From assembly GCA_001873755.1 (NCBI GenBank), contig MNZT01000096.1, positions 1 to 23,040 on the forward strand: DNA of 23,040 nt, written 5' to 3'. The notes under the pieces are model-generated. The model did no database searches, was not told the DNA's origin, and saw only the letters and a program-made list of their open reading frames with translations. Shown here piece after piece: positions 3,308 through 18,377 of this stretch. The DNA is from Candidatus Wirthbacteria bacterium CG2_30_54_11. Lineage in GTDB: Bacteria > Patescibacteriota > CG2-30-54-11. The translations under genes were made by a program, and so were the position numbers. Numbering within the stretch: the first letter of the stretch is position 1; each line of letters starts with the position of its first letter.

Positions 3308-4168
3308 ATGTTTTTCCTAAGTGTTCTGGCAGGTCTCGGGGTCGCGCTGGGATGGGGAATCGCAGATTTCGCACAGAAGAAACTGGTCATGGAGAACGGG
3401 GCCTATAGCATGATCCTGCCTCTTCAGGTAGCAACGACGGCCCTGGTCGGTGGTGTATGGGTATTGTTCCGCTTTCCTGTGCAGGTTTCGTTTACCGCAT
3501 TTTGCTGGATGCTGGCGGGCACCTGCCTGCTTACTGCTGCCTGGTTCCTATTCTTTCGGGCGCTTTCGATAGGGAATGTATCGGTCCTCTGCGCGTTGTA
3601 TGCATTTTATACGGTCATCCCTTTTTTTTGGCAGACAGTGGTGGAAAAAATCCAGTTAAATATTGTACAGTTTATAGGAATGGGTGTTGTGTTAATTGCT
3701 GGAATACTGATTTCTGTGGACTCCCGGAGTCTGAAGCAGGGGTTCAAAGCATCTCTTTCCAAAGGGGTAAAAGAAATTACCGCTGCACTTGTGATGTCGG
3801 GGTTTGGTTTTTTAATGATCGATCATGCAGTTCAGGAGATCGGATGGAAGTCTGGATATATTGTTCAGCAGATGCTTTCACTACTCGAGGTAGTCGTCAT
3901 TCTGCTTCTTCTGGGAAAGTTCAGGGAGTCACGTCTACCGGTGTCCTGGGGCTGGTTTAGTACGGTGGTTTTGGCCAATATAATTGCATTTGGAAGTTTC
4001 AATGCAGGCATGGAGATCGGATATGTGAGTGTGGTGGGGATCGTCGGCACTTTTTCCGTAGCGATCACGGCGCTGCTGGCCTGGCCGCTGCTGAAGGAAC
4101 GACTCGCTTTCAATCAATATCTGGGCATCGCGTTCGGCATCGTCGGCATCATCAGTCTCAGTCTTTGA
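3308..4168 (+). CDS. DMT-superfamily (EamA-like) transporter, about 10 TM
   Basis: 286-aa highly hydrophobic ORF with two similar halves, each ending in a small-residue-rich helix (GVVLIAGILISV and GIAFGIVGIISLSL). The start lies 1 nt after the gamma-subunit stop. Confidence 0.7.
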   Translation: MFFLSVLAGLGVALGWGIADFAQKKLVMENGAYSMILPLQVATTALVGGVWVLFRFPVQVSFTAFCWMLAGTCLLTAAWFLFFRALSIGNVSVLCALYAFYTVIPFFWQTVVEKIQLNIVQFIGMGVVLIAGILISVDSRSLKQGFKASLSKGVKEITAALVMSGFGFLMIDHAVQEIGWKSGYIVQQMLSLLEVVVILLLLGKFRESRLPVSWGWFSTVVLANIIAFGSFNAGMEIGYVSVVGIVGTFSVAITALLAWPLLKERLAFNQYLGIAFGIVGIISLSL

Positions 4169-4194
4169 ATAAACTCACCAGTTACCAGTGACTA

Positions 4195-4833
4195 ATGACA
4201 AACATTCCTTCGACTGAACAGTGCTATGGACTCTGGGATACCTATCATGTTCCAGACAATGTACGCGGACATCTCTCGCTTGTGAGGGACGTGGCCTTGC
4301 TTCTTGGGTGTGAACTGCAGAAGTCAGGGCAGACAGTTTTGCTGGAGTTGACCGAAGCAGGAGCTTTACTTCATGATGTGCTCAGATTCGTGGGTACGCA
4401 TCAGATCAATCTGCGATATTTCCAAGCACCCCCGACCAAGGAGGATTTTGAAGAATGGAGACGGCTGGATCAGAAATACCCAGGACTGAATCATGCCTGG
4501 GCAGCCGGAGCAGAGCTGCGTGAACTGGGATACGACGAAGCTCTCAGCCGGGTAGTGGAACGGCATGACTATGCCAAGGTCGTTGACCCGGATGATGGTC
4601 CGACCACCTGGGAAGAAAAACTGGTTTTTTATGCGGACAAGCGGGTCCTGCACCGTGAGCTGGTTTCACTTGAGAAGCGGTTCTCCGACAGTGAGGTCCG
4701 GTATCCGGAATTCGTCAATGTGCCGGGCGAGGAATTGAAAAGGGCAGCGATATATGAGCTGGAACGGGAGATATTTTCATACGTAGCGTTTCCACCGGAG
4801 GATGTGGGGGGTATACTGCATACATCTGGTTAA
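4195..4833 (+). CDS. HD-domain metal-dependent phosphohydrolase (YqeK/COG1713-like)
   Basis: 212 aa. The H...HD...H...HD...D pattern is present (RGHLSLV, ALLHDVLR, NHAWAAG, VERHDYAK, FYADKRV). Confidence 0.7.
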   Translation: MTNIPSTEQCYGLWDTYHVPDNVRGHLSLVRDVALLLGCELQKSGQTVLLELTEAGALLHDVLRFVGTHQINLRYFQAPPTKEDFEEWRRLDQKYPGLNHAWAAGAELRELGYDEALSRVVERHDYAKVVDPDDGPTTWEEKLVFYADKRVLHRELVSLEKRFSDSEVRYPEFVNVPGEELKRAAIYELEREIFSYVAFPPEDVGGILHTSG

Positions 4834-4910
4834 CGGGTTTGCGGGTTAACGGGTTCACGAGTTCTGGGGATCAACCCGTTAACTCGTTAACCCATTAACT
4901 CGTTAACGTA
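4828..4910. repeat. Dense GTTAAC-cored repeat array, probably an operator or attenuator. It consists of two 16-bp tandem units (4828-4843, 4844-4859), an 11-bp perfect inverted repeat (4845-4855 / 4873-4883) and an 8-bp tandem (C/T)C(G/A)TTAAC x4 (4875-4906), which equals a 16-bp tandem TTAACTCGTTAAC x2 at 4879 and 4895.
   Basis: Read directly. GTTAAC occurs at 4829, 4845, 4878, 4886 and 4902, with ATTAAC at 4894, all within an 89-bp gap. The first copy contains the TAA stop of the HD gene. The array ends 12 nt before the ATG at 4923 (SD GAGG at 4914-4917). Confidence 0.8.
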
Positions 4911-4922
4911 TATGAGGTCCTC

Positions 4923-5963
4923 ATGGTCGGTATCATAGGCTACGGCGCATACATCCCGAAGTATCGTATCAAGGCAGAGGAGATCGCGGCGATCTGGGGG
5001 CAGGATCCCAGGCGCATCATCGAAGGCCTTCGCATTCAGGAGAAGTCTGTGCCCGGACTGGACGAAGACAGCGCGACCATGGGTATCGAGGCCAGCCGCA
5101 ATGCACTCGCCGTGGCCGGGATCGATGCTTCGACCATAGGAGCGGTTTACAGCGGTTCCGAGTCCAAGGTCTATGCGGTCAAGCCCAATGCCACCATGAT
5201 CGGAGACGCACTTGGCATCGGCCATAAATATAAGGCGGCAGATGTCGAGTTTGCCTGCAAGGCCGGTACCGCGACCATGCAGATGGTCGTTGCCGAGGTG
5301 GAGAGCGGGATGATCGACTGCGGTTTGGCGGTTGGCATGGATACGGCACAAGGGCGACCGGGCGATGCACTTGAGTACAGCGCGGCGGCTGGCGGGGCAG
5401 CGTTCCTCATCGGCAGCGACGAAAAAAAGATCCTGGCAAAACTTGAGGCTACCTGTTCGTCCTCGTCAGACACTCCTGACTTCTGGCGCCGTCAGAAGGA
5501 GGAATATCCGGTACATCGGGAGCGCTTTTCCGGCAAACCGAGCTACGAGGCGCAGATCGCCCTGTCCGTCGGCATGCTGCTTGAGCGCTTGAAGCTCAAG
5601 CCTGCGGATTTTGACCGGGCGGTGTTCCACACGCCCAACGGGAAATTTCCCCTGGCCATCGGAAAAAAGCTGGGTTTTACCATGAAACAGATGGAGGCCG
5701 GCTACATCGTCCCGGTGGTGGGCAATACCTATTCCGGCGCTTCGCTTCTGGGACTGGCGGCGACGCTGGATGCTGCCGGTTCTGGTGAACGCATTCTGGT
5801 CGCTTCGTATGGCTCGGGCGCCGGTAGTGATGCTTTCAGCTTTGTGACCACTCCCCAGCTGAAAAAGCGCCGGGACCGGGCGCCTCAGGTCCGAAACTAT
5901 ATCGATCACAAACAGTATCTGTCCTACGGCCAATATATCAGACACACAGGACATCTGGGATGA
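4923..5963 (+). CDS. Hydroxymethylglutaryl-CoA synthase, archaeal type (about 350 aa, UPF0219 family)
   Basis: 346 aa. The N-terminus is MVGIIGYGAYIPKYRIKAEEIA. The catalytic triad context is intact by eye: GSE(80)SKVYAVKP, EFAC(112)KAGT and VFH(236)TPNGKFP. Thiolase-like and DUF35 partners lie downstream. Confidence 0.85.
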   Translation: MVGIIGYGAYIPKYRIKAEEIAAIWGQDPRRIIEGLRIQEKSVPGLDEDSATMGIEASRNALAVAGIDASTIGAVYSGSESKVYAVKPNATMIGDALGIGHKYKAADVEFACKAGTATMQMVVAEVESGMIDCGLAVGMDTAQGRPGDALEYSAAAGGAAFLIGSDEKKILAKLEATCSSSSDTPDFWRRQKEEYPVHRERFSGKPSYEAQIALSVGMLLERLKLKPADFDRAVFHTPNGKFPLAIGKKLGFTMKQMEAGYIVPVVGNTYSGASLLGLAATLDAAGSGERILVASYGSGAGSDAFSFVTTPQLKKRRDRAPQVRNYIDHKQYLSYGQYIRHTGHLG

Positions 5964-6877
5964 CCACCCGCACCCTGCCGAAACATTTCCAGCTCCTCCC
6001 GAACGAGCAGCTGGTGGAAATTGTCCACCCCCACTGGTTCGCTTTTTATCGCACCTATGCCGTCTGGGCTTTGATCATAGCTGCGGGCGTAGTGCTGTTT
6101 TCGTGCCGAGAGGTGGTGGCATCAGTATTTCCATCTTCCCATCTCGATCTCCCGTTCAGTATTATCAACGGCCTCCTTTCGACCAACGGGTCTCTTCAGA
6201 TCAGCTACGATCTGCTGTCCAGATCGGCTCTCGACGGCCTGATCCTGGTGACCGCCTGGTGGTATGTACTGATCTTGATGGGAGCGTTCGTGGCTCTGGC
6301 CAAGGTAAACGGAGGATGGATGCTCGTTTTCCTCGCGATCGGCAGTCTGAGCACTGCCGCCGGGGTGCTCACCGGCTTCCCGACCTGGACTCCACTGTTC
6401 GGAGCAGCGCTGTGTTTCGCAGGTATGGTGATGACTGACCGGTACCGCCGGTCTCACTATTTCATCATCACCGATCTCAGGCTCATTCTGTATGTAGATT
6501 TTTTCCACCTGCAGGAACGAGACCTTCTCCTGAGCAGACTGAGCGATCTCGCTATCGACCAGACGCTGGTCGGACGGCTGTTTGATTTCGGGACCTTGAT
6601 CCCGATTTCCCTTTCTGGTTTCGGCATGGGAGCAGATATGTCCATGGTGGGCGTGGGAGCGCAGGCAGGTCCGCTGTCTGTGACGGGAGCTCTGGGGACC
6701 AGTGTCGGAGTCCCTCGTGCGAGAAGCCCTCATGTATTGTTCGGGGTGCCTGATCCACATGCCGTTCATGCCATACTGGAAAAGCTGATTTATACCAATT
6801 CCGAGGTCAAGCATCTACAGACCATCACCGACGAGTTGAAGAATATGAAATTTCTAACGACAAATGAATCCAAATAG
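5960..6877 (+). CDS. Membrane protein with bacterial PH domain (bPH_2 / YdbS-YdbT-like, DUF304)
   Basis: 305 aa. It has an LLPNEQLVEIVHPHW entry motif, then about 4 TM helices, then YFIITDLRLILY...LSDLAIDQTLVGRLFDFGTLI...FGVPDPHAVHAILEKLI, typical of bPH_2. The ATGA overlap with the HMGCS stop suggests translational coupling. Confidence 0.6.
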   Translation: MTTRTLPKHFQLLPNEQLVEIVHPHWFAFYRTYAVWALIIAAGVVLFSCREVVASVFPSSHLDLPFSIINGLLSTNGSLQISYDLLSRSALDGLILVTAWWYVLILMGAFVALAKVNGGWMLVFLAIGSLSTAAGVLTGFPTWTPLFGAALCFAGMVMTDRYRRSHYFIITDLRLILYVDFFHLQERDLLLSRLSDLAIDQTLVGRLFDFGTLIPISLSGFGMGADMSMVGVGAQAGPLSVTGALGTSVGVPRARSPHVLFGVPDPHAVHAILEKLIYTNSEVKHLQTITDELKNMKFLTTNESK

Positions 6878-6906
6878 CTGTTTTTTCACCAACAGGGAGT
6901 GATACC

Positions 6907-8058
6907 ATGGATGTCAGAGTAGCCGCCACCGGCGGAGTCAGATATGGAGAGCTGTGGACCCTGGGTATCGGGGATCTCATGCGCGCAGCCGCAGCAGATG
7001 TCCTGAAGAATTTTGATGGGGATATGAAGGATATCGATACGCTCGTCCTTTCGAACTGCTTTGCCGGGAGGGCTCTGGGTATCCACACCCTGATTCCCCT
7101 GGCGTACGATGAGCTTGGTTTCCGCGGGCGGATCTTTGAGGTGACCGGCTCGGATGCCACGGGCGGATTTGCCGTGCAGCGGGCAGCCATACTGATCGAG
7201 AGTGGAGTCGCGCAGCGGGTCCTGGTACTGGGGGTCGAAAAGATCGGCGATCTGCTCGCCTCTCAGGTGCAGTCGGCGCTTTCTTCCCTCCTGGGCTCGG
7301 AGCAAGTGTTCCAGGGGCAGACCCTCGCTTCTGACTATGCGCTCATGGCTCGGCAGTACATGGAAACGTACGGGGTGACACTTCGGGACCTCGCACTCAT
7401 CAGTGTGAAAAATCATGCGAACGCCTCACTCAATCCCATGGCCCAGTTTCCTTTTCCTTTGACCGTGGAGCAGGCGGCAGAAAGCCAGGAGATCGCAAGT
7501 CCGCTGAGGGCTCTGGATGCTGCCTCGATCTGTGATGGAGCTTCAGCCCTGATCCTCGAAAAGCCGGGGAAGAATTCCTCGCCGGTCAGCATCGTCGGAC
7601 TGGGCGAAGGGCGCGACCTCCCGGGGCTTCATGACCGGAAAGATCTCACCTCTCTGGCCGCGACCCGGGAAGCGGCACAAATGGCGTACGAGGCCGCAGG
7701 GGTGAGTCCACAGGAGATCGATGTCGCGGAAGTACATGATGTCTATTCCATAGCCGAGCTGATGGCTATCGAGGATCTTGGTTTTGCCAGACCCGGTCAG
7801 GCCAAAACCTGGGTGCGCAAAGGCAGGACGGCCCTCGGGGGCGATCTGCCGGTCAACCCTTCGGGCGGATTGAAAGCGTGCGGTCATGCACCCGGTGCCA
7901 CTGGCGTCAGGCAGGCGGCAGAGATAGCTGTCCAACTAAGCGCTTCAGCCGGCAAGCGGCAGGTGGCAGACGCTTCTGTCGGTCTCAGTCACTCAGTCGG
8001 TGGCAATGGCAGTCAGTGTGCGGTCACCATATTTCGTACTATAGCCATACGAGGATAA
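6907..8058 (+). CDS. Thiolase-superfamily protein (SCP-x / archaeal acetoacetyl-CoA thiolase-like) lacking the nucleophilic Cys (Asp83)
   Basis: 383 aa. LGVEKIGD, NPSGGLKACGHAPGATG and HSVGGNGSQCAVTIF match thiolase C-terminal signatures. The expected xxACASGG segment reads TGSD(83)ATGG (GAT at 7153-7155). Confidence 0.8.
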   Translation: MDVRVAATGGVRYGELWTLGIGDLMRAAAADVLKNFDGDMKDIDTLVLSNCFAGRALGIHTLIPLAYDELGFRGRIFEVTGSDATGGFAVQRAAILIESGVAQRVLVLGVEKIGDLLASQVQSALSSLLGSEQVFQGQTLASDYALMARQYMETYGVTLRDLALISVKNHANASLNPMAQFPFPLTVEQAAESQEIASPLRALDAASICDGASALILEKPGKNSSPVSIVGLGEGRDLPGLHDRKDLTSLAATREAAQMAYEAAGVSPQEIDVAEVHDVYSIAELMAIEDLGFARPGQAKTWVRKGRTALGGDLPVNPSGGLKACGHAPGATGVRQAAEIAVQLSASAGKRQVADASVGLSHSVGGNGSQCAVTIFRTIAIRG

Positions 8059-8060
8059 CC

Positions 8061-8519
8061 ATGAGAGATAATGTCCCTGATTCCTGGCGTCGTCAGAGCG
8101 ATCATGTGATCCCGGTCTCGAGTCACTGCCGCCACTGCCGGGAGACGTTCATCCACGAACGGCATGCCTGTCCCCGTTGCGGGCGGGGCACTATGACGGT
8201 CAAGCCTGCGAGTACGGCGGGGGTCGTCGAATCCTGGACCGAGATTTTTGATCCGCCGGAGGAATTTCACCGGATGCGGCCGTATATCATAGGACTCATC
8301 CGGCTTGATGACGGGGCCCGGCTTTCAGCTCCGATCGTTGACGTCGAGAGCGGGATGCTCGTGAAGGGCATGAGAGTGGAAGCCGTGGTGAGAAAAGTGT
8401 ATGTGCAGGGACAGGATGGTCTGATAGAATATGGGACAAAATATCGGCCTTCCATGAAAGTTATCAAAGAATCAAAGCCGCCCTCTGGGGCGAGCCTCGC
8501 TAAAAGCGGGAAGCAATAA
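8061..8519 (+). CDS. DUF35 protein (Zn-ribbon plus OB-fold; thiolase/HMGCS scaffold family)
   Basis: 152 aa. The Zn-ribbon is C-x2-C-x11-C-x2-C (CRHCRETFIHERHACPRCG), followed by an OB-fold-like YIIGLIRLDDGARLSAPIVDV...GMRVEAV. The ATG lies 2 nt after the thiolase stop, with GAGGA upstream. Confidence 0.8.
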   Translation: MRDNVPDSWRRQSDHVIPVSSHCRHCRETFIHERHACPRCGRGTMTVKPASTAGVVESWTEIFDPPEEFHRMRPYIIGLIRLDDGARLSAPIVDVESGMLVKGMRVEAVVRKVYVQGQDGLIEYGTKYRPSMKVIKESKPPSGASLAKSGKQ

Positions 8520-8523
8520 ATCA

Positions 8524-9402
8524 ATGGTCAAAAAGACGGATACGAAGATCATATCGATCAAAAAGGCGGTCTCCTGGATCAAGGACGGGATGACGGTTGC
8601 TCTGGGTGAATTTTCCTACCAGAATCTGCCGATGGAAGTGGTCAGGGAGATCATCCGTACACGGAAAAAGGATCTGACGATCATCTCCGGCCCTACTTCC
8701 GGTCTGGCCACTGATATGCTGATTTCCGCCGGATGCGTGAGTCGGGTGGTGACCGCCGGGGTCGGGTTTGAGGATGTTGCCGGAATCGCCCCGGGTTTCC
8801 GCTCGGCCTGTGAGAGGGGGACGCTAGAGGTCTGGGAGTGTGATGAGTGCATGTGGCAGGCAGGTCTGGAGGCCGCTGCCCGGGGACAGCCGTTCGCACT
8901 CTGGCAGGGGGGCATCGGCTCTGATATTCCTTCCTTGAATCCTTCTATTCATCTCGTCGTGGTCAGCCCCGCAGGCGAGGTAAAACGGGTCAGATCCCTT
9001 GGGAATGCGGCCCGGAGGGCCAAAGCTACCGGGGGCCAGATCTTTCTTCAGATACCGCCGATAGTACCGGATATCACGTTCATCCACGCGGCTACTGCCG
9101 ATGAGCTCGGGTTTGTCCAATATCCACAGAAGCGGTATCTGGGCAGAGTATTCAATGAAAAACTGCTCAGCGAAGCGACCCGGGGGCCGGTGATCGCGAC
9201 GGTAGAGAAGATAGTTTCTCATGAGCAGATCATGAAGCATCCGGAGCTGACGGTCATTCGGAACGCCTGGGTGGCCCAGGCGCCCCGGGGCGCCTGGCCG
9301 GGAGGCTGCAACGGGGTCTATCCGCCTGACCTGAAGGCGTACCGGGCGTATGTGCGCAGTGGCGGTGATGTACATTTATTCCTGGGAGAGGGAACAGTAT
9401 GA
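8524..9402 (+). CDS. Family-I CoA-transferase alpha-subunit-like protein (GctA/AibA-like), pair 1
   Basis: 292 aa. IISIKKAVSWIKDGMTVALGEFSYQNLPMEVVREIIRTRKKDLTIIS is the typical N-terminal fold of glutaconate/3-oxoacid CoA-transferase A subunits. Confidence 0.75.
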   Translation: MVKKTDTKIISIKKAVSWIKDGMTVALGEFSYQNLPMEVVREIIRTRKKDLTIISGPTSGLATDMLISAGCVSRVVTAGVGFEDVAGIAPGFRSACERGTLEVWECDECMWQAGLEAAARGQPFALWQGGIGSDIPSLNPSIHLVVVSPAGEVKRVRSLGNAARRAKATGGQIFLQIPPIVPDITFIHAATADELGFVQYPQKRYLGRVFNEKLLSEATRGPVIATVEKIVSHEQIMKHPELTVIRNAWVAQAPRGAWPGGCNGVYPPDLKAYRAYVRSGGDVHLFLGEGTV

Positions 9403-10043
9403 CGCAGGTTTCCATGATCAAGGTCAACAAGAAGGCCAAAAAAGTATACCGGCAGGAAGTTCTCCATCGCGGACTTTTTGGGGTGCTTCTGGTCGTGGCG
9501 CTGGCCGTCGGGGTTGTCGCGGGCGGGTTTTTCTTTCCTGCGGTTCGCACGGCCAGCAGCCTGGAGCCGGATACTCCTGGAGACAGGTCCGCGATATCCG
9601 CGGCAGAACGATCTGCCGATCAGCAGAGCGATGAAACTGAAGCCACTTTTTTGTCCGTCGATGCTTCTCCGCCTCCGGCGGCAGAGGCTCCGGTTCCTGC
9701 CCCGGTAGAAGAACAGCCGGCCACCACGATCACTGAAACTACCGACCCGGCTGATATCAGCATGATCATTCTCAACGGTTCCGGGATCGACGGTGAAGCC
9801 GGCAGATTTGCCGAATACGCAGAAGGTAAAGGTGTATCCGTGGTCGGAACCGCGAACGCCAGGCAGTGGGACCATGAAGAGACAGAGATCTATTTTTCGG
9901 AAGATAATGCGGAAAAAGCAAAACTGGTCATGGAGCTGCTGGGCAAGCAATATCCCTGGATCATGTATACAGAAGCGCTCGACGGCAGGGATGCCGACAT
10001 AGTGATTGTCCTTGGTACTACTTCTCCTTTGCAGGGTTCCTGA
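9399..10043 (+). CDS. Membrane-anchored LytR_C-domain protein
   Basis: 214 aa. It has an N-terminal basic stretch and one TM helix (GLFGVLLVVALAVGVVAGGFFF), a Pro/Ala/Glu-rich linker, and a C-terminal ISMIILNGSGIDGEAGRFAEYAEGKGVSVV...DADIVIVLG (LytR_C signature). ATGA overlaps the upstream stop and TGATG overlaps the downstream start. Confidence 0.7.
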   Translation: MTQVSMIKVNKKAKKVYRQEVLHRGLFGVLLVVALAVGVVAGGFFFPAVRTASSLEPDTPGDRSAISAAERSADQQSDETEATFLSVDASPPPAAEAPVPAPVEEQPATTITETTDPADISMIILNGSGIDGEAGRFAEYAEGKGVSVVGTANARQWDHEETEIYFSEDNAEKAKLVMELLGKQYPWIMYTEALDGRDADIVIVLGTTSPLQGS

Positions 10044-10849
10044 TGAGCAAGAATTATTCTACAGCGCAACTGATGACCTGCGTGATCGCCCGGGATCTCT
10101 CTGACAGCGACCGGGTGGCTTTTGGCCTGCATGCCGGTATTGGCCTGGGTGCAGCTCTGCTCGCCCAGAAGCTGCACGCTCCGCATCTGCAGATACGGCA
10201 TGGTCTGCACGAATCCCTGAAGCCTGCTCTCAGCCCCTCGGCGTGGACGGCAGAGAAAAGGACGGAGAGCCGGGTATCCTATTTTGAATCTCATGATGAA
10301 ATGCTGCTCTGGGGCAACCCGACCGGTAGTCAGACCTTTTCCAGCGTCTTTTTCATCAGTGGTCTGCAGATCGACCGGTACGGCGCGACCAATCTGGTGG
10401 GCATCAGGAACCAAGCTTCGAAACCACACATCTGGCTGGTCCGGGGACCCGGCAGCATCGGTACTCCGTCGGCAGCCTGGTTCTGTGCCAAATACTATCT
10501 GTTCTCTTTTTGCCACGATCTCCGCACATTTGTGCCCAAGGTAGACGTAGTGTCTGTGCCCGGTACTGATCGTCTGCGCGCTCTGGGTTACCCAAAGAAA
10601 TTTCCCCGTCTGTGCATCACTCCCCTGGGGGTTTTCGGCTGGGACAATGCCGAAGGAACCATGAAGATCATATCGCTTCATCCCGGAGTTACGATTGACG
10701 AAGTTCAGGAACGGACAGGATTTGAGCTCGTCCGTCCGGATCGGGTGAGAACCACAGAGATTCCTTCATCGGCTGAGCAGAAGGCACTTAAGGAGATTGA
10801 TCCCAAAGGTGAGATTTTTAAGCTCGATAGCACAATGCTGAGGGATTGA
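10043..10849 (+). CDS. Family-I CoA-transferase beta-subunit-like protein (GctB/AibB-like), pair 1
   Basis: 268 aa. STAQLMTCVIARDLSDSDRVAFGLHAGIGLGAALLAQKLHAP, FFISGLQIDRYGATNL and VDVVSVPG align by eye with GctB. The canonical Glu register (Ala of the 'AP' dipeptide +8) is Gly54, with Glu57 three residues later. Confidence 0.7.
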   Translation: MSKNYSTAQLMTCVIARDLSDSDRVAFGLHAGIGLGAALLAQKLHAPHLQIRHGLHESLKPALSPSAWTAEKRTESRVSYFESHDEMLLWGNPTGSQTFSSVFFISGLQIDRYGATNLVGIRNQASKPHIWLVRGPGSIGTPSAAWFCAKYYLFSFCHDLRTFVPKVDVVSVPGTDRLRALGYPKKFPRLCITPLGVFGWDNAEGTMKIISLHPGVTIDEVQERTGFELVRPDRVRTTEIPSSAEQKALKEIDPKGEIFKLDSTMLRD

Positions 10850-10851
10850 CC

Positions 10852-11601
10852 ATGACTACCATCATCACCTTGAAAGATATAGCTGATCTGATACCGGCCG
10901 GATCCCGTCTGATATGCGGTGGTTTTCAGGCCAACCGGGCTCCGGTCGGTCTCGTGCAGGCTTTGCTCGACGGCCCACCCGGTCAGTTCGCGCTTACCGC
11001 ACTGCCCAACCCGGTGCCGACCGACATGCTGCTTCGTGGTGACAGATTGTCTCTGCTTGATACAAGTTTCAATGGACTGGAGCTTTCGGACGGCTTCCAC
11101 TCCTCAGCCGGCTTTCGCCACGCCATAGAATGTACGAACATCGGTTGGAAAGAGAGCGATGTGTACGAGATCATCCAGGGAATGCGTGCGGCGGCCATGG
11201 GGCTGCCCTTCATACCGGCACCTGAGATAGCGGGTTCTCAGTATACGGAGAGTCAATATCACCGTATTCATCGCGTGGTCGACCCGTTCCATGGCGGGGA
11301 AAGTGTTTTTGCGGTTCCACCCTTGAACCCTGACGTGGCGCTTCTCCATGTGCAAAAGGCTGACCGTAACGGCAACCTCTGGATCGAGGATCCGCTCTAT
11401 GATGAGATCATTCTGCAGGCGAGCCGTCTGACGATCGTGAGCTGCGAAGAACTTGTCGACAGTATCGACCGGCCAACCATCAGTGGACTGTTCGTGGATC
11501 ATGTTCTGGCGATCAAAAACGGGGCGGCGCCGACCGGTTGCCGGGGGTATTACGGACCGGATGAGAAACGCCTGCAAGAGATCCTGGGAGGTACGCGATG
11601 A
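10852..11601 (+). CDS. Family-I CoA-transferase alpha-subunit-like protein (GctA/AibA-like), pair 2
   Basis: 249 aa from the ATG at 10852; the ORF track uses TTG at 10846, which overlaps the upstream stop. ITLKDIADLIPAGSRLICGGFQANRAPVGLVQALL and ALLHVQKADRNGNL are typical alpha-subunit segments. Confidence 0.75.
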   Translation: MTTIITLKDIADLIPAGSRLICGGFQANRAPVGLVQALLDGPPGQFALTALPNPVPTDMLLRGDRLSLLDTSFNGLELSDGFHSSAGFRHAIECTNIGWKESDVYEIIQGMRAAAMGLPFIPAPEIAGSQYTESQYHRIHRVVDPFHGGESVFAVPPLNPDVALLHVQKADRNGNLWIEDPLYDEIILQASRLTIVSCEELVDSIDRPTISGLFVDHVLAIKNGAAPTGCRGYYGPDEKRLQEILGGTR

Positions 11602-12314
11602 ATCCTCGAGACAAGATGATCTCGTATCTGGCCGGTTTGATCCGGGATGGCGACCTCGTCTCCACCGGGGTGGCTTCGCTCATCCCTTTTCTGGCGGTCG
11701 CTCTGGCGAAGCGGACATACGCTCCTGCGAGCAGGTTCATCACCTGCAGCGGAGCGGTGGATCCGGTTTTTGAGCAGGCAGGCCTGTCCTCTGACGACAG
11801 CTCCACTTTTTCGTCCTGGTCTTCCTTCGTTCCTTTGCCTTCACTCTTTGACCTCGGGGTCCGTGGCGGCATCGATGTCATGTTCTTTTCCGGGGCACAG
11901 ATCGACCAGAGTGGCAGGATCAACCTCACTTCGATAGGTGATTATCTCAAACCCAAGGTCAAGTTGCCAGGTCCGGCTGGCTCCACAGTGATGCTCCGCC
12001 GGGTGCAGCGGCCGGTCCTGTTCACGCTGCAGCACACGACGCGGACGCTGGTTGCGGAGGTTGATTTCGTGACCGCAGACGGCTGCGCGACCAGAGACAG
12101 CATCGAGCTGGTGACGGAGCTCGGTGTGCTGACGCTTCGGAAGGATGCTCCGGCAGTGATGACCGCCCGGTTCAGTGATCTGTCAGAACAGGAGATACAG
12201 GAAAGGACCGCTTTCCCTCTTGTTTTTCAGAACCGAGAGGCGAGGGAGCAGGATATTCACACCAATACTGCTATACTGAACGAGCTGGACCCTGAGGGCC
12301 GCAGGTATCATTGA
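11598..12314 (+). CDS. Family-I CoA-transferase beta-subunit-like protein (GctB/AibB-like), pair 2, with Cys in place of the catalytic Glu
   Basis: 238 aa. MISYLAGLIRDGDLVSTGVASLIPFLAVALAKRTYAPASRFITC(50)SGAVD corresponds to (V/S)E(S/N)G in bona fide transferases. FFSGAQIDQSGRINLTSIGDY is the conserved beta-subunit segment. ATGA overlaps the upstream stop. Confidence 0.75.
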   Translation: MNPRDKMISYLAGLIRDGDLVSTGVASLIPFLAVALAKRTYAPASRFITCSGAVDPVFEQAGLSSDDSSTFSSWSSFVPLPSLFDLGVRGGIDVMFFSGAQIDQSGRINLTSIGDYLKPKVKLPGPAGSTVMLRRVQRPVLFTLQHTTRTLVAEVDFVTADGCATRDSIELVTELGVLTLRKDAPAVMTARFSDLSEQEIQERTAFPLVFQNREAREQDIHTNTAILNELDPEGRRYH

Positions 12315-12343
12315 GGACAAGTTTCCTAGAGGGGAGTCGTACG

Positions 12344-13894
12344 ATGAGATCAACGGTGAAACCATTCAAAAAGATTCTGATCATCAACCGCGGCGAAATC
12401 GCTGTGCGGGCCATCCGGGCCTGCCGGGAGCTCGGGATCTCGGTCGGGGTCATCTATAGCCGCGCTGATGTTCACTCCCTGCCGGTCAAGCTGGCGGATG
12501 AGGCTTTTTTCATGGAGGGCGAGAGCGACATCAGCGCCTATCTCGACCAGCAGAAGATCGTCGATGTCGCCAGGACTCATCGGTATGATGCGGTCTATCC
12601 CGGGTATGGCTTTCTGGCTGAGAATTCTTCTTTTGCTGCTCTGTGTGCGGAGCGGGGGATCGCCTTCATCGGACCGTCTGCTGCGGTGCTTCATTCACTG
12701 GGAGACAAAGTCGAGGCTAAACGAATCGCCCGTAAAGTCGGTGCGCCGCTCGTGCCAGGAGAGGACAGGGAGGTTCCCGATGACAAGGATGCCAGGGATA
12801 GCGCCCGGAAGATCGGATATCCGATTGTCGTAAAAGCCTCCGGCGGCGGTGGTGGGCGCGGGATTCGAGTGGTGATGAAGGAGGCTTTTCTTCTGAAAAG
12901 CGTGAAGGAAGCCCAGAGAGAAGCCAAACTGGCTTTTCATAATCCCGGCGTCTATATCGAAAAATTCATCGAAAATCCGCGTCATGTGGAATTCCAAATT
13001 CTGGGTGATCGCTACGGCAACGTCATCCATCTGGGCGAACGTGACTGCTCGGTTCAGCGCCGTCACCAGAAGCTGATCGAGGAAGCACCGTCTACCGTAC
13101 TGACCGAGGAAATGCGGCAGAAGATAGGAGCGTATGCCATCGCCATGGCTCGTGAAGTCGGACTGGTCGGCGTAGCCACGGTGGAATTCCTCGTGGATCG
13201 TCAGCAGAATTACTTTTTCATCGAGGTCAATCCGCGTATCCAGGTGGAGCACGGAGTGACCGAACTCATCTGCGGCATCGATCTGGTGAAGTGGCAGATC
13301 AGGGTCGCGCAGGGCGAGAAGCTTTCCCTTCGTCAGAAGGATATCGTGCTCCGAGGCCACGCCATCGAGTGCCGCATCAATTCAGAAGATCCCTTATCCG
13401 AATTTGCGGTCTCCACGGGCGTGATCGAACAGTACCTGCCGCCCGGAGGGACAGGTGTTCGGGTCTGCGGCGGGATCTTTGTCGGTCAGGAAGTATCCTC
13501 CCAGTTCGATACGCTCCTTTTGAAACTGATGGTCTGGGACGAAACGAGAGCAAAGGCGATCGAACGCATGAGGCGAGCCCTGGGAGAATGCATCATCGAA
13601 GGGGTCAAGACGACGCTGCCGTTCCATCGGACGGTCATGGACAACCGGAATTTTCAGAAAGGCGACGTGGATACGGATTTCATCCCCAAGAACAAGATCA
13701 GTCTCCAGATCAGGAAGAACGCCGAAAAGATGAGGCAGCCCAGCCTGCTGAACGACCAGGTCGAATCCATCCGGTATCGGGAGATCGCGCTCATCGCCGC
13801 GTCGGTCTACAAAAACCTGAAACGAGAAATGGGTACCGCGGGCAATGGCGGGTCGAACGCCTGGGTCACCTCGGCGCGTAAGGATCAAATGTAG
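12344..13894 (+). CDS. accC: Biotin carboxylase (ATP-grasp) subunit of an acyl-CoA carboxylase, long archaeal-like form
   Basis: 516 aa from the ATG at 12344, with GGGGAG 7 nt upstream; the track's TTG at 12311 is less likely. FKKILIINRGEIAVRAIRACRELGI, GYPIVVKASGGGGGRGIRVV and FIEVNPRIQVEHGVTE are canonical biotin-carboxylase motifs. A roughly 65-aa C-terminal extension lies beyond the usual AccC end. Confidence 0.9.
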   Translation: MRSTVKPFKKILIINRGEIAVRAIRACRELGISVGVIYSRADVHSLPVKLADEAFFMEGESDISAYLDQQKIVDVARTHRYDAVYPGYGFLAENSSFAALCAERGIAFIGPSAAVLHSLGDKVEAKRIARKVGAPLVPGEDREVPDDKDARDSARKIGYPIVVKASGGGGGRGIRVVMKEAFLLKSVKEAQREAKLAFHNPGVYIEKFIENPRHVEFQILGDRYGNVIHLGERDCSVQRRHQKLIEEAPSTVLTEEMRQKIGAYAIAMAREVGLVGVATVEFLVDRQQNYFFIEVNPRIQVEHGVTELICGIDLVKWQIRVAQGEKLSLRQKDIVLRGHAIECRINSEDPLSEFAVSTGVIEQYLPPGGTGVRVCGGIFVGQEVSSQFDTLLLKLMVWDETRAKAIERMRRALGECIIEGVKTTLPFHRTVMDNRNFQKGDVDTDFIPKNKISLQIRKNAEKMRQPSLLNDQVESIRYREIALIAASVYKNLKREMGTAGNGGSNAWVTSARKDQM

Positions 13895-13901
13895 GTACAG
13901 C

Positions 13902-14543
13902 ATGACCACTGAAGCCAAGTCAAATCGTCGGATCGCGATTCTCGGTGGAGCTTACAATCCTCCGACTATTGCCTATGAAAAAATTGTGAGAGCTGTGCTC
14001 CAGAAGGATGCGGCGCAGGAAGTGTGGCTGATGCCCTATCAGGAGCGCGCATTTGGTAAATTCATGGCCGCCACCGCACAGCAGCGGTTCCGCATGGCTG
14101 AGCTCCTGGCTGGTCAGATCGGCGACCGGGTCAGGGCGTCTGAGGCCGAGATCGCAAGACAAGGGAAAAGCTACACCATCGATACGGTGCGTGAGCTGAA
14201 GAGACTGTATCCGGACTGCGAGTTCTGCTGGATCATCGGTACTGACCTCCTCTATGAGCTTTCGGACTGGAAAGATATCGAGGCACTTACCACGGAAGTC
14301 ACTTTTCTGGGCGTGCTCAGGCCGGGCTACCCGGTCAATGCACAGCTGGTGGACCGTTACCGCGTGCAGCTGCTGCTGGGACCCCGCCTCATGCCGGACG
14401 TATCCGCTTCTCTCGTGCGCCAGAGACTCGCTGCAGGCAAGAACATGCAGGGGCTGGTTCCCGAAGTGATTGAGCGTTATATTGAAGCAGAAAGACTGTA
14501 TCAACCCCAGACAGATCCTACCAGTGTTCAAAAGGAGGAGTGA
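13902..14543 (+). CDS. NadD-like nucleotidyltransferase (nicotinate-nucleotide adenylyltransferase family) with a degenerate (H/T)xGH motif
   Basis: 213 aa. RIAILGGAYNPPTIAYEKI aligns with the NadD motif GGTFDPPHxGH, giving HxGH -> TIAY. SYTIDTV, IIGTDLLYELSDW and the ISxTxxR-like VSASLVRQR are retained. Confidence 0.65.
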   Translation: MTTEAKSNRRIAILGGAYNPPTIAYEKIVRAVLQKDAAQEVWLMPYQERAFGKFMAATAQQRFRMAELLAGQIGDRVRASEAEIARQGKSYTIDTVRELKRLYPDCEFCWIIGTDLLYELSDWKDIEALTTEVTFLGVLRPGYPVNAQLVDRYRVQLLLGPRLMPDVSASLVRQRLAAGKNMQGLVPEVIERYIEAERLYQPQTDPTSVQKEE

Positions 14544-16075
14544 TGAAAGATAAGATCGAGATCCTGAAAAAACGTCGGGTGGCGCTCTCTGACAGCAAAC
14601 GGACAGAATCCCAGCACGAGAAAGGCAGATTGACCGCGCGTGAACGCATCCTCATGCTGGTGGACAAGGAGAGCTTTGTAGAACTGGACCCCTATGTGCA
14701 GCTGCGGAGCCACAATTTCAACCTGCAGGAAAAGAAGACCGACGGGGATGGGGTTGTGACCGGCTACGGCAGGGTCAACGGCCGCAAGGTCGCCATCTAT
14801 GCCCAGGATGCGACGGCCATGGGCGGCAGCCTCGGGGAGATGCATGCGGCCAAAATCGCCCAGGTCCAGGATATGGCAATCAGCTGTGGCTGTCCTATCA
14901 TCGGCATCATCGACAGCGGCGGCGCCCGCATCCAGGAGGGAGTCAACAGCCTCGACGGCTATGCCGAGGTGTTCAACCGCAATGTCCGCTCCAGCGGCGT
15001 GGTCCCTCAGATCGCCGTCATCGTCGGCCCTTCGGCCGGCGGCGCCTGCTATTCCCCGGCGCTTATGGACTTCATCTTCATGGTGAAGGATCTGAGTTAT
15101 ATGTTCATCACCGGTCCCCAGGTGATCAAACTGGTCACCAGTGAGGAGATCGATTTCGAGGGACTCGGCGGCGCCATGGTGCACAACCAGAAGAGCGGGG
15201 TGGCGCATTTCGCCATGGCCAACGAAGAAGGCTGCTTCCATTTCGTGAAAAAGCTTCTCCGCTATCTGCCATCCAACAATCTGGAAGACCCGCCCCGGGT
15301 GCCGAGCGAAGATCCCGCTGACCGGTTGTGCGACCGGATACTGGATCTCGTACCGGCCGACTCTACCAAGTCCTACGAGATGAAGGATGTCATCGAGGAG
15401 ATCGTCGACCGGGATTCTTTCTTCGGTCTGCAGAAGTTCTATGCCCGGAACGTGATCATCGGGCTTGCCCGGCTGGATGGATTTCCGGTCGGCATCGTAG
15501 CCAATCAGCCCAAGATCCTCGCCGGCTGCCTCGATATCGACGCCTCGGACAAGATCGCCCGGTTCGTCACCTTCTGCGATGCGTTCAATATCCCAGTGGT
15601 CAACCTAGTTGATGTTCCCGGGTATCTTCCGGGCGTCAATCAAGAGCATCAGGGCATCATCCGCCACGGGGCCAAAATTCTCTATGCGTACGCCGCATCT
15701 ACCATTCCCAAGATATCGGTAGTTCTGCGCAAGTCGTACGGCGGGGCCTACATCGCGCTCTCGTCGAAGAAGATGGGCTACGATCAGGTCATCGCCTGGC
15801 CGACGGCGGAGCTCGCGGTCATGGGAGCGGAGCAGGCAGTCGATATCGTGTACGGCCGCGAGCTGAGCGAGAAGAAGAGCAAACGGCTCAGAGCCAGAAA
15901 GATCGAGGAATACCGTGAAAAATTCATGAATCCCTATACTGCTGCCCAGATGGGTCAGGTCGATATGATCATCGACCCGAGGGAGACCAGAAAGACCCTG
16001 ATCTCCAGCCTTTCCTTCCTCCGCACCAAACGCGTCCCCAAGGTCAGCCGCAAACACGGTTCCATGCCGGTCTAG
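14543..16075 (+). CDS. Acyl-CoA carboxylase carboxyltransferase subunit (PccB / MmdA / MccB family; substrate not assignable by eye)
   Basis: 510 aa from the ATG at 14543, with TGATG overlap and AAGGAGGAG upstream. QHEKGRLTARERILMLVDKESFVELD, IIDSGGARIQEG and AYAASTIPKISVVLRKSYGGAYIAL are hallmark carboxyltransferase segments. Confidence 0.88.
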   Translation: MKDKIEILKKRRVALSDSKRTESQHEKGRLTARERILMLVDKESFVELDPYVQLRSHNFNLQEKKTDGDGVVTGYGRVNGRKVAIYAQDATAMGGSLGEMHAAKIAQVQDMAISCGCPIIGIIDSGGARIQEGVNSLDGYAEVFNRNVRSSGVVPQIAVIVGPSAGGACYSPALMDFIFMVKDLSYMFITGPQVIKLVTSEEIDFEGLGGAMVHNQKSGVAHFAMANEEGCFHFVKKLLRYLPSNNLEDPPRVPSEDPADRLCDRILDLVPADSTKSYEMKDVIEEIVDRDSFFGLQKFYARNVIIGLARLDGFPVGIVANQPKILAGCLDIDASDKIARFVTFCDAFNIPVVNLVDVPGYLPGVNQEHQGIIRHGAKILYAYAASTIPKISVVLRKSYGGAYIALSSKKMGYDQVIAWPTAELAVMGAEQAVDIVYGRELSEKKSKRLRARKIEEYREKFMNPYTAAQMGQVDMIIDPRETRKTLISSLSFLRTKRVPKVSRKHGSMPV

Positions 16076-16087
16076 TACAGGTGGTCT

Positions 16088-16501
16088 ATGGCTTCGGACA
16101 GAACTACCAAGATCAATATCATCTTGAAAGAAACCAAGCATACGATCCGTTTTGTGGAAAACGGGCCGCAAGAGCTACTGGTGGGTATCGATGGTGCGAC
16201 CGTGCCGGTGGACCTGGACCGCATGGTCTCATCTCAGGATATTGAGAACCGATTTGAGCATGATGACGAGTTCGAGGAGGAGGGAAGTGAATCGAAAGTG
16301 ATATCCCCGATCCCCGGAGTGGTCACCAGTATATTTGTGAAAGAGGGAGACGAGGTTCAGTCAGGGCAGCCCCTGTGCATGATCCTGGCCATGAAGATGG
16401 AAAATGAAATTACAAGTCCGAGGACCGGGGCGATCAGGCAGGTCGGTATCCAGTCAGGACAATCAGTCATGAGCGGTCATATACTTTTCGAATTTGTCTA
16501 G
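16088..16501 (+). CDS. Biotin carboxyl carrier protein (biotinyl domain)
   Basis: 137 aa. The C-terminal biotinyl domain carries the attachment motif in PLCMILAMKMENEITSP (AMKM). An acidic linker (EHDDEFEEEGSES) precedes it. Confidence 0.85.
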   Translation: MASDRTTKINIILKETKHTIRFVENGPQELLVGIDGATVPVDLDRMVSSQDIENRFEHDDEFEEEGSESKVISPIPGVVTSIFVKEGDEVQSGQPLCMILAMKMENEITSPRTGAIRQVGIQSGQSVMSGHILFEFV

Positions 16502-16510
16502 GAAATACTC

Positions 16511-17095
16511 ATGAGAGAACTTGATGCTGTCGCATCTTCCCGCCGTCTGGTAATCGTCAGGGTTTTCAGCATGGCTGCCTGTCTCGCCCTGACGGCTTTT
16601 GGCGCTCAGATACGGATTCCGCTCTGGTTCACCCCGGTGCCGGTGACCGGTCAGGTGTTCGGGGTGATCTGTACAGGATTGTTGCTTGATGCCAGGGCTG
16701 CAGTCAGCGTTCAATTTGCGTATGTATTTTTGGGAGTACTCGGTATCCCCTGGTTTACCAACGGCGGCGGGGGGGCAGGTTATCTGCTCGGACCGACCGG
16801 GGGCTATCTGGTTGGATTCATGGTTGCTGCCGGCGTTATCGCAGTGCTTCGCCAGAGAATATCTGGCATCACAGCTTCTCTGACCGGGGTCGCGGTCATT
16901 TATCTTGCCGGCACTATCTGGCTGGCGGTGTACCTCAATACGATTTCGCATATGCCTTTGTCGACGGCGCTGCCCAAAGCGTTCTGGCTGGGAGTCGCGC
17001 CGTTCTGGCTGGGCGATGTCGTAAAAGCAGTCTTGGCGACCCTGGTCTCGTCCCGCTTCAGCTCTCCATCAGGCCGAGCAGACAGGACTCAATGA
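16511..17095 (+). CDS. bioY: Biotin transporter BioY (ECF-type S component)
   Basis: 194 aa, about 6 [29 protein letters not shown] and [12 protein letters not shown] match the conserved BioY signatures (PVPiTlQ, GPTGGYL). Confidence 0.85.
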
Positions 17096-18377
17096 GTTCA
17101 GGAGTATTGTCCCTGATGACATAGAGCGGTATTCCTTCTGACTCTGCCAGCCGGATGGAAGGGCCGCGGTTGCGGTAGAATTTTTTCTGGGCGAATACCA
17201 TATCCGCATCCTGTATGCGGGGCGCGATCCGGATATTCAGTCCGAGTCTCTGTCCTATAGCCTCGATGTGTTTACGGCTCACGCCGAGAGGGTAAATGGT
17301 ATAGAGGTGCGGTTCTGGAGCGGGAACTCCTTTGCTCCACAGATCGTGATCGTCGCGCGGCGCTATCAGCGGGGTATAGGATTCCCTGACGACGGTTCCG
17401 TCTGCTTTTCTCAATCTTTTTTCCCGGGCCGGCTCTGTTCCCCGCAGCAGCAGATCGACCGCCGCGGCGACCTCGGGATGGATGAGCAGATCGTCCCTGT
17501 CCAGAATCTCGATGACGATATCAAAGGTGGGCGGGGCTTTGCGTTCGAGGACTGACTTCTGGGTGCCGCGTCTCTTCGCTTCCTCGTCTCCGAGCGTGAC
17601 GCTCTGGATGCCGCCGACGAGGTCATTCAGGGTAGGGTTCTGTATGAGGTTTTCGAGTGTATTGCCGTGCGCAGTGGCGATGAGCTGGACGCCTCGTTCG
17701 GCGATGGTGCGGGCAGCTTCGGCTTCGTCAGTCGTGCCTATCTCGTCGATCACGATCACCTGCGGCATATGGTTTTCGACCGCTTCGATCATGATATGGT
17801 GCTGCTCTCTGGGATGGGTCACCTGCATGCGGCGGGCGCTGCCGATAGCGGGGTGAGGGATGTCGCCGTCTCCGGCGATCTCATTGGAGGTGTCGACGAT
17901 GACGACCCTTTTGTGCAGGTCGTCAGACAGGATGCGGGCGGTTTCTCTCAGGATGGTGGTTTTGCCCACCCCGGGCCGGCCGAGGATCAGGATGCTTTGG
18001 CCTGACTCGATGAGGTCGCGGATGATCTCGGCGGTGCCGAACACCGCTCTGCCGACCCGGCAGGTCAGCCCGATCACCTGGCCGCTGCGGTTCCTGAGGG
18101 CAGAGATGCGGTGGAGTGTCCGTTCGATACCGGCGCGGTTGTCGCCCCCGAATTCACCGAGATGTGTAGTCACATGAGAAATATCGGCAGGACTGACCAC
18201 AGTTTTGCCCAGGGCTGTTTCCCGGCCATCACAGCGGATGGTGGGGGTACGGCCCAGGTCCAGAATGACCTCGACGAGCTGATCGTGTCCTTTGATCTTC
18301 TGGAGGGCGGTGCGGATGCGGAGCGGCAGTATGGCCACGAAGAGCTTCAGGTCTGCCGAGGCGGTGCTTTTGGGCAT
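17058..18377 (-). CDS. SpoIIIAA / Ycf45-like AAA+ ATPase
   Basis: 439 aa. It has Walker [14 protein letters not shown], Walker [10 protein letters not shown] and the family-typical [26 protein letters not shown]-terminal alpha/beta domain of about 90 aa has unclear function. The 3' end overlaps bioY convergently by 38 bp. Confidence 0.75.

Follow-up and report, generated by a model that had tools for sequence, protein, structure and literature searches.

What would a member of the Wirthbacteria, a lineage that is sibling to the candidate phyla radiation (CPR), make with a string of genes that combines an archaeal-type 3-hydroxy-3-methylglutaryl-CoA (HMG-CoA) synthase, two pairs of CoA-transferase-like proteins and a biotin-dependent carboxylase? 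The question is posed by contig MNZT01000096.1 of Candidatus Wirthbacteria bacterium CG2_30_54_11 (assembly GCA_001873755.1), of which positions 1 to 23,040 were analysed as a whole (hereafter the window, 23,040 nucleotides). A preliminary description of this DNA had treated the genes at 4923-16501 as one system interconverting HMG-CoA and branched C5 acyl-CoAs, an interpretation that is partly supported. We think it probable that two units have been joined here, an operon of the alternative isovaleryl-CoA biosynthesis (AIB) type (4923-12314) and an acetyl/propionyl-CoA-type carboxylase (12344-17095). The first would be the form taken in Wirthbacteria by an operon type that is in fact widespread, although only myxobacterial examples have been described, and its core appears, judging from the sequences, to be a variant of the AIB pathway with archaeal-type enzymes and an extra enzyme pair. 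Behind this reading stand, as direct results, the families assigned to the proteins, the residues at their active sites and the conservation of gene order.

The gene map is based on the open reading frame (ORF) listing and on Pfam and NCBIfam scans of the window proteins. As had been described, thirteen co-directional ORFs, all on the plus strand, occupy 4923-16501, and neighbouring genes overlap or lie no more than 29 nt apart; the whole co-directional run is larger, extending over about 20 plus-strand genes from 292 to 17095. Ten of the thirteen belong to the families named before, as the Pfam and NCBIfam matches confirm, but three interleaved genes, for a membrane protein, a LytR_C-domain protein and NadD, had been passed over. 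The genes of the two units are:

4923-5963, plus strand: archaeal-type HMG-CoA synthase (HMGCS; NCBIfam NF003274, TIGR00748)
6907-8058, plus strand: thiolase-like protein (Pfam Thiolase_N, Thiolase_C_1)
8061-8519, plus strand: DUF35 protein with zinc ribbon and OB fold (Pfam OB_ChsH2_C, weak zf-ChsH2; true start about 8061)
8524-9402, plus strand: pair 1 alpha, Gct-like subunit of the CoA-transferase fold (Pfam CoA_trans)
10043-10849, plus strand: pair 1 beta, Gct-like subunit (PDB matches, multiple sequence alignments, AlphaFold2 model)
10852-11601, plus strand: AibA-like, 249 aa, putative 3-methylglutaconyl-CoA decarboxylase subunit (PDB 5mzw_A; start as in the database protein)
11598-12314, plus strand: AibB-like, 238 aa (PDB 5mzw_D)
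12344-13894, plus strand: biotin carboxylase (BC), AccC-type, stand-alone (Pfam Biotin_carb_N, CPSase_L_D2, Biotin_carb_C; NF006367; annotated start 12344)
14543-16075, plus strand: carboxyltransferase (CT) of PccB/AccD5/MmdA type, 510 aa (Pfam Carboxyl_trans, 611 bits)
16088-16501, plus strand: biotin carboxyl carrier protein (BCCP) with AMKM motif (Pfam Biotin_lipoyl)
16511-17095, plus strand: BioY biotin transporter component (Pfam BioY, 127 bits)

The AibA-like protein matches 5mzw_A with 162 bits (E 1.9e-46) as against 71 bits (7.6e-19) for GctA, and the AibB-like protein matches 5mzw_D with 131 bits (5.2e-37) as against 55 bits (8.4e-14) for GctB, so that the scores to AibAB are two to three times those to glutaconate CoA-transferase. 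The hallmark of AibA/AibB is Cys56B, which replaces the catalytic Glu of the transferases and is hydrogen-bonded to Glu72B (PMC7756340). In a gap-free phmmer alignment Cys50 of the AibB-like protein corresponds to Cys56B, a placement with which an L-INS-i multiple sequence alignment (MSA) including GctB agrees, and Asp66 stands, as a conservative change, at the position of Glu72B. Several substitutions of Cys56B leave activity (PMC7756340), and the AibB homologue of one metagenome contig (L006) carries Ala at this position. The products of 10852-12314 thus look like close relatives, and are convincing homologues, of the solved Myxococcus AibA/AibB decarboxylase; reading them as a true CoA-transferase is ruled out by the replacement of the catalytic Glu with Cys50.

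The linkage of these genes to an HMG-CoA-forming module extends well beyond the window. Genomes were scanned with an alignment of AibA, and the window proteins were mapped by tblastn onto the 80 loci obtained; in at least 22 of them an archaeal-type HMGCS (45-53% identity), a thiolase and a DUF35 gene lie directly upstream of AibA-AibB. These loci come from Acidobacteriota, Gemmatimonadota, some Myxococcota metagenome-assembled genomes and one Woesearchaeota archaeon. A zinc-dependent alcohol dehydrogenase (zinc-ADH, AibC-like) gene is usually next and a TetR gene is sometimes found upstream, both having been spotted through greedy longest-ORF clustering of high-GC loci, which picked many antisense ORFs. 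All five genes from HMGCS to AibB are translationally coupled in L006. Two Woesearchaeota genomes also have an eight-gene operon that includes pair 1, and in a 5.87-Mb genome (L092) the order is TetR-HMGCS-thiolase-DUF35-pair 1-fused AibA-AibB-zinc-ADH, the fusion being a single 507-aa protein (10753-12276). Classical myxobacteria combine AibA-AibB and the zinc-ADH with a bacterial-type HMGCS, and one metagenome contig of that type has a TetR gene upstream. The AIB route has been called unique to myxobacteria (PMC5389471), and in the literature searched AibA/AibB appear only in myxobacteria and engineered hosts. Since AibAB homology coincides with linkage to the HMGCS triad in several phyla, the core is best read as converting HMG-CoA into a branched C5 acyl-CoA. 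For the triad and AibAB the linkage is conserved, but the carboxylase adjoins them only in the Wirthbacteria lineage; neither CoA-transferase-like pair falls among true transferases.

The Myxococcus xanthus AIB operon is arranged AibR-AibA-AibB-AibC-MvaS, with LiuC unlinked (PMC5389471). The window resembles it in having AibA/AibB homologues in which Cys has taken over the former Glu position and in their direct linkage to an HMG-CoA synthase gene, and the relatives of the window operon, though not the window itself, share the AibC-like zinc-ADH and TetR genes as well. Unlike in M. xanthus, the HMGCS is archaeal-type, is only 25-29% identical to bacterial MvaS and comes with a thiolase-like protein and DUF35, an extra Gct-like pair is present, AibC and AibR are missing from the window, where a carboxylase follows instead, and the host is of a CPR-sibling lineage. 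The HMGCS passes both equivalog cut-offs (NF003274, 497 bits against 244; TIGR00748, 458 bits against 353) and aligns without gaps to 6esq_I of Methanothermococcus (386 bits). The catalytic tetrad E-C-H-N defined for HMG-CoA synthase (PMC12960953) is intact, with E80/C112/H236/N268 corresponding to E82/C114/H238/N270 of 6esq_I. The DUF35 gene starts 3 nt past the thiolase stop, and its translation contains CxxC...CxxC.

Pair 1 (8524-9402 and 10043-10849) is harder to place. Both pairs had been described as AibAB/GctAB-like, which holds for 10852-12314, whereas pair 1 is about equally far from AibAB, IpdAB and GctAB: its alpha subunit is at near-equal sequence distance to AibA, IpdA and GctA, and the best PDB match of its beta subunit is IpdB (1e-12), followed by GctB (4.5e-11) and AibB (3e-8). 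The AlphaFold2 monomer model of the beta subunit (pLDDT 78; TM-scores of 0.74-0.79 to AibB, IpdB and GctB) is disordered in the segment after the RHG motif and confirms the fold only. In the MSAs Gly54, preceded by Arg52-His53, falls on the catalytic-Glu column of GctB. A 16-sequence alignment shows the motif I-R-H-G-L to be invariant, along with 55 of the 268 positions in all, including Arg52-His53-Gly54 and RGPGSxGT. Without the catalytic Glu a transferase mechanism is not expected, and Gly54 rules out a true CoA-transferase. While both pairs have the two-subunit family-I CoA-transferase fold of GctAB (1poi), Glu54-beta of the latter is thus replaced by Cys in the AibAB-like pair and by Gly in pair 1. 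IpdB, which is no transferase, likewise has Gly at the catalytic-Glu position (PMC5380842), and pair 1 resembles IpdAB (the COCHEA-CoA hydrolase of steroid catabolism; 6con, 6co6) in this residue and in its Gct-like fold. Yet the identity to IpdAB is only about 22-24%, the invariant Arg-His before the Gly belongs to the pair 1 clade only, and, in contrast to the KstR2-type steroid context of IpdAB, pair 1 lies, in all contigs looked at, in an HMGCS/AibAB operon with no steroid-catabolic neighbours.

When metagenomes were scanned with an alignment of pair 1 beta, 80 loci were recovered, and their neighbours split at 41% identity. At or above this value AibA lies downstream of pair 1 beta in 40/40 contigs (below it, 0/11), HMGCS upstream in 21/21 (0/8), the AibC-like zinc-ADH downstream in 23/27 (0/9) and pair 1 alpha upstream in 39/40 (10/11). 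The position of the clade, between DUF35 and AibA, is the same in all 40 contigs at or above 41% identity, although many of these are near-duplicates and the figure counts contigs rather than independent lineages, which tempers the argument from conservation. At least four distant groups carry pair 1: Acidobacteriota including Polarisedimenticolia, Woesearchaeota/Nanoarchaeia, the Wirthbacteria lineage and the L092 genome. The alpha/beta genes below 41% (L151, L157, L163, L165, L170, L174) have acyl-CoA dehydrogenase neighbours and neither AibAB nor HMGCS, and look like a separate uncharacterised Gct-like subfamily; in two aligned homologues of low identity (P0239, P0240) Met replaces His53. 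In a library-wide profile search the operon-linked clade comprised a few 50%-identity representatives above 225 bits, with other subfamilies from 206 bits, and the search gave no lead to function. Pair 1 is, on its sequence, a distinct Gct-like clade that is functionally uncharacterised. Of the AIB steps, HMG-CoA dehydration alone has no gene in the eight-gene operon; in Myxococcus it is done by the unlinked LiuC (PMC5389471). We infer that pair 1 is a candidate HMG-CoA dehydratase. Tentatively, it could be an HMG-CoA dehydratase (3-methylglutaconyl-CoA hydratase) of the CoA-transferase fold, working through the invariant Arg-His, an assignment that we regard as possible but on balance doubtful.

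The second unit bears directly on the earlier proposal that the biotin enzyme is a 3-methylcrotonyl-CoA carboxylase (MCC). The BC passes its NCBIfam model (NF006367, 600.7 against a cut-off of 597). Among PDB chains the CT scores highest with Thermotoga maritima PccB (1vrg, 631 bits), acetyl-CoA carboxylase beta (7w5u, 600 bits) and other PccB/AccD5 chains (555-592 bits), as against 188-239 bits for MCC beta, 207 for GCC beta and 108 for GcdA, and BC and BCCP are encoded separately, unlike in MCC alpha. This score ranking rules out the MCC reading: the CT is PccB-type (631 against at most 239 bits) and falls, by its PDB scores, among the acetyl/propionyl-CoA carboxylases, a placement that the preliminary description had itself named as one of three counts against its hypothesis; the other two, Gct-like pairs among characterised transferases and a linkage lost in relatives, are not borne out for the core. 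BC, CT and BCCP are predicted to form a three-subunit carboxylase of acetyl/propionyl-CoA type, the substrate being predicted from that type, which probably makes malonyl- or methylmalonyl-CoA. The unit resembles the AccC + PccB + BCCP carboxylases of archaea, actinobacteria and Thermotoga in its separate BC, its 510-aa PccB-type CT and its small AMKM-bearing BCCP; it differs from them in the NadD gene between BC and CT, in the addition of BioY, which does follow BCCP directly as had been reported (Pfam BioY at 16511-17095), and in forming one gene string with an AIB-like module. After AibB, relatives at 72%, 55% and 52-57% identity have the same order BC-NadD-CT-BCCP-BioY, which among the loci examined is found there in no lineage other than Wirthbacteria.

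Put together, the route may be pictured as follows; which reactions are catalysed, what pair 1 does, which way the flux runs and what the product is used for are all predictions. The archaeal-type HMGCS with its thiolase-like partner and DUF35 would form HMG-CoA, pair 1 would dehydrate it to 3-methylglutaconyl-CoA, which is the most economical assignment, and the AibA/AibB orthologue would decarboxylate the latter to 3-methylcrotonyl-CoA. For the last reduction to isovaleryl-CoA, which would fall to AibC elsewhere and to a FabK-like protein in Woesearchaeota, the window has no gene. The carboxylase of the second unit would not act on 3-methylcrotonyl-CoA; it is joined to the first unit only in the Wirthbacteria lineage. 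The product may provide branched lipid starter units, or leucine by way of a VorB-like 2-oxoacid:ferredoxin oxidoreductase (OFOR). A Woesearchaeota locus offers a view of the first of these uses (L093 1-20783, GCA_019322485.1): there the AIB-like module shares a cluster with three thiolases, DUF362, a FabA-like dehydratase, a FabK-like reductase, a short-chain dehydrogenase/reductase (SDR), an acyl-CoA dehydrogenase (ACAD) with electron-transfer flavoprotein alpha/beta, two PlsC-type acyltransferases and a bacterial-type GpsA, and BC and biotin ligase genes are divergently placed upstream of the cluster. This looks like a fatty-acid/ester-lipid island, and the position of the module among lipid-type genes suggests that its C5 product serves lipid synthesis in that archaeon; by analogy, the same role may extend to Wirthbacteria.

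Several observations weigh against this account. The first concerns the thiolase-like protein. The window was said to contain an archaeal-type triad, and indeed, like the Methanothermococcus thermolithotrophicus complex (6esq), it has the same three proteins, adjacent, with the HMGCS tetrad intact and a DUF35 with zinc ribbon and OB fold, but a membrane-protein gene separates HMGCS from the thiolase-like gene and the thiolase nucleophile is missing. Asp83 (in GSDATGG) falls on Cys85 of 6esq_A in both pairwise alignment and MSA, and HDCF is changed to HDVY (Cys to Val, Phe to Tyr, His kept), so that both thiolase cysteines are lost; the GH motif is retained as CGHA. Asp occupies the nucleophile column also in an 80%-identity relative, in the thiolases of the Woesearchaeota modules and in 41 of the 120 closest database homologues, an Archaeoglobus fulgidus protein included, which indicates a family trait and not decay. 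With both cysteines gone the canonical acetoacetyl-CoA-forming step is doubtful, and the triad cannot be presumed to work like the solved archaeal complex. There is no second thiolase within the window, and the Woesearchaeota loci with the Asp variant have additional Cys-thiolases upstream. The A. fulgidus thiolase gene lies within an HMGCS-thiolase-DUF35 operon (L094/L095 6973-9528) and has Asp for the catalytic Cys and HDSF for HDCF, as do 40 other close homologues (Archaeoglobales, Syntrophoarchaeum, Thermoplasmatota; P0251-P0360). Soil-bacterial operons retain the cysteine (tblastn), and two metagenome eight-gene operons (L099, L114) show Ala in tblastn, either an alignment artefact or a third variant. 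No description of an Asp-variant thiolase was found in the literature searched.

The missing steps also count against the proposed route. As had been stated for 3-methylglutaconyl-CoA hydratase, HMG-CoA reductase or lyase and acyl-CoA dehydrogenase, Pfam and NCBIfam scans of the window found no crotonase-type dehydratase/hydratase and none of these other enzymes, nor any AibC-like or FabK-like reductase or TetR gene, and tblastn of the window with AibC, FabK-like, FabA-like, SDR and ACAD queries returned nothing. With no reductase or crotonase-type dehydratase in the window, the encoded route ends at 3-methylcrotonyl-CoA at best. The dehydratase assignment draws on one missing step, one unassigned enzyme and the chemistry of IpdAB, a distant relative, whose hydrolytic ring opening of an enoyl-CoA has been described as retro-aldol hydrolysis (PMC5380842), and operons that lack pair 1 are common among the loci of the AibA scan, so that pair 1 is not needed everywhere. 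Finally, the carboxylase sits where AibC stands elsewhere, and at one Woesearchaeota locus (L093) BC and biotin ligase genes adjoin the module, which leaves room for a functional tie between carboxylase and module.

How else might the locus be explained? If all thirteen genes formed one network linking acetyl-CoA and HMG-CoA with 3-methylglutaconyl-, 3-methylcrotonyl- and isovaleryl-CoA, with the biotin enzyme as MCC and the OFOR as the link to leucine, the tight co-directional packing with no terminator-like site in the gaps, the persistence of the order AibB-BC-NadD-CT-BCCP down to relatives of 52-55% identity and the VorB-type score of OFOR alpha would all fall into place. However, such a network would need an MCC where the CT (555-631 bits to PccB-type chains, 188-239 to MCC beta, 207 to GCC beta) and the separate BC and BCCP argue for another enzyme, it would amount to a futile cycle, one substrate pair being shared by a decarboxylase and a carboxylase that consumes ATP, and the window lacks the reductase that forms isovaleryl-CoA. 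Moreover, no other phylum with the module links it to this carboxylase, and in Woesearchaeota the module has a POR-type OFOR next to it. We therefore hold a single network to be very unlikely. The opposite view, that the region is a mosaic of housekeeping genes brought together by a compact genome, with the triad serving mevalonate only, the Gct-like proteins being ordinary CoA-transferases and the carboxylase serving fatty acids, can point to the unrelated genes scattered throughout (PAP2, membrane protein, LytR_C, NadD) and to the lineage-specific carboxylase linkage. It is highly improbable nonetheless, as neither beta subunit has the catalytic Glu that a family-I transferase requires, and the triad, pair 1 and AibAB occur together across bacterial phyla and DPANN archaea.

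Two further alternatives concern single components of the operon. The loss of both thiolase cysteines (Asp83 and HDVY), the want of a Cys-thiolase in the window, the acetyl/propionyl-type carboxylase right after the module in every contig of the Wirthbacteria lineage and the BC and biotin ligase beside the Asp-variant module of L093 would fit a scheme in which acetoacetyl-CoA or HMG-CoA arises by decarboxylative condensation, with malonyl-CoA supplied by the adjacent carboxylase, and such a scheme would explain why a carboxylase joined the operon. That malonyl-CoA feeds the Cys-less thiolase-like protein is a minority possibility, and the scheme as a whole is in our estimation decidedly unlikely. 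We know of no enzyme of this kind, the correlation comes from two lineages only, the Asp-variant operon of A. fulgidus has no carboxylase nearby, and ordinary Cys-thiolases upstream in Woesearchaeota could supply acetoacetyl-CoA. A study of an archaeal thiolase reported neither malonyl-CoA-dependent activity nor decarboxylating ketothiolases (bioRxiv 10.1101/2024.07.05.601840). As for pair 1, it may be non-catalytic, a duplicated and degenerate AibAB-like partner with a scaffold or regulatory role, dehydration being left to an unlinked crotonase as in Myxococcus. The frequent operons without pair 1, which must use an unlinked dehydratase, and the disorder of the AlphaFold2 model just past the RHG motif are consistent with this, but it is unlikely, since the 55 invariant positions of 268, Arg52-His53-Gly54 and RGPGSxGT among them, argue for a constrained active site in pair 1 beta, and its strict place in the operon is kept at 41-50% identity. 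An AIB-type operon joined to an acetyl/propionyl-CoA-type carboxylase thus remains the account that we favour.

Upstream of the two units lie the OFOR genes and, with the genes interleaved among the subunit genes, they complete the co-directional run:

292-1350, plus strand: OFOR alpha, VorB-like (Pfam POR_N and PFOR_II; NCBIfam NF005507)
1359-1988, plus strand: membrane protein of the PAP2 lipid phosphatase family, separating OFOR alpha from beta (Pfam PAP2_3, PAP2)
2009-2746, plus strand: OFOR beta (Pfam TPP_enzyme_C; NCBIfam)
2764-3306, plus strand: OFOR gamma (Pfam POR; NCBIfam)
3308-4168, plus strand: EamA
4195-4833, plus strand: HD-domain protein
5960-6877, plus strand: 305-aa multi-pass membrane protein, between HMGCS and the thiolase-like gene (hydrophobic segments in the translation)
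9399-10043, plus strand: LytR_C-domain protein (Pfam LytR_C) separating pair 1 alpha from beta, with a hydrophobic segment at its N-terminus
13902-14543, plus strand: NadD (nicotinate-nucleotide adenylyltransferase), between BC and CT (TIGR00482, 138.7 bits against a cut-off of 112.45)

It had been suggested that the OFOR connects isovaleryl-CoA with 2-oxoisocaproate. The alpha subunit passes the VorB subfamily model (NF005507, 520 bits against a cut-off of 399), while beta and gamma remain below the NCBIfam equivalog cut-offs, and no delta ferredoxin gene precedes OFOR alpha, positions 1-291 holding only a 35-codon ORF. A link of the VorB-like OFOR to branched-chain 2-oxoacids, converting 2-oxoisocaproate to isovaleryl-CoA or the reverse, is possible on this evidence. 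The linkage itself is not a conserved one: the OFOR that adjoins the module in one Woesearchaeota genome (L013) is POR-type and another (L093) has no OFOR, which rules out conserved linkage of OFOR and module.

Unrelated or membrane genes interrupt the subunit genes of one enzyme at several points of the run (PAP2, the 305-aa protein, LytR_C, NadD), and in the relative L090 an EamA-like gene (4375-5256) lies between AibA and AibB. Such insertions are kept in relatives at 55-80% identity and are absent from the operon in other phyla. The LytR_C insertion is retained in the relatives L003, L090 and L098, not in the operon of other phyla, and the position of NadD between BC and CT is retained in the same three. 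The 305-aa membrane protein has no Pfam or NCBIfam match; a relative's contig (L176) has a 307-aa ORF without family match at the same position, the two having been compared by position only. Downstream, a gene for a SpoIIIAA-like ATPase (17058-18377, minus strand) is convergent with bioY and overlaps its 3' end by 38 nt, and occupies the same position in L090. The large ORFs at 18933-20486 (minus), 20542-22227 (plus) and 22519-22995 (minus) matched nothing in Pfam or NCBIfam. A promoter and terminator scan of the window found no intergenic terminator and no convincing promoter, and so gave no operon boundaries, such as one between AibB and BC.

The wider meaning of the locus lies in the company that AibA/AibB keep: together with an HMG-CoA-forming module, usually the archaeal-type triad, they travel through several bacterial phyla, DPANN archaea and a CPR-sibling lineage. 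With pair 1 there is a definite candidate for an enzyme activity not yet known, and the occurrence of a Cys-less 'thiolase' in the triad of A. fulgidus as well raises the question of where acetoacetyl-CoA for HMG-CoA comes from; according to the literature searched, neither the pair 1 clade, which is specific to this operon, nor the thiolase with Asp has been reported so far. If pair 1 is indeed a dehydratase, the eight-gene operon HMGCS-thiolase-DUF35-pair 1 alpha/beta-AibA-AibB-reductase would lead from acetyl-CoA to isovaleryl-CoA with its own genes alone, a route that Acidobacteriota, DPANN archaea and a CPR-sibling lineage would share, and the Cys-less thiolase-like protein of Wirthbacteria and Woesearchaeota may in addition make the C4/C6 intermediate differently, possibly fed by the carboxylase. 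In organisms with small genomes, this operon may account for branched-chain lipid starters or for leucine.

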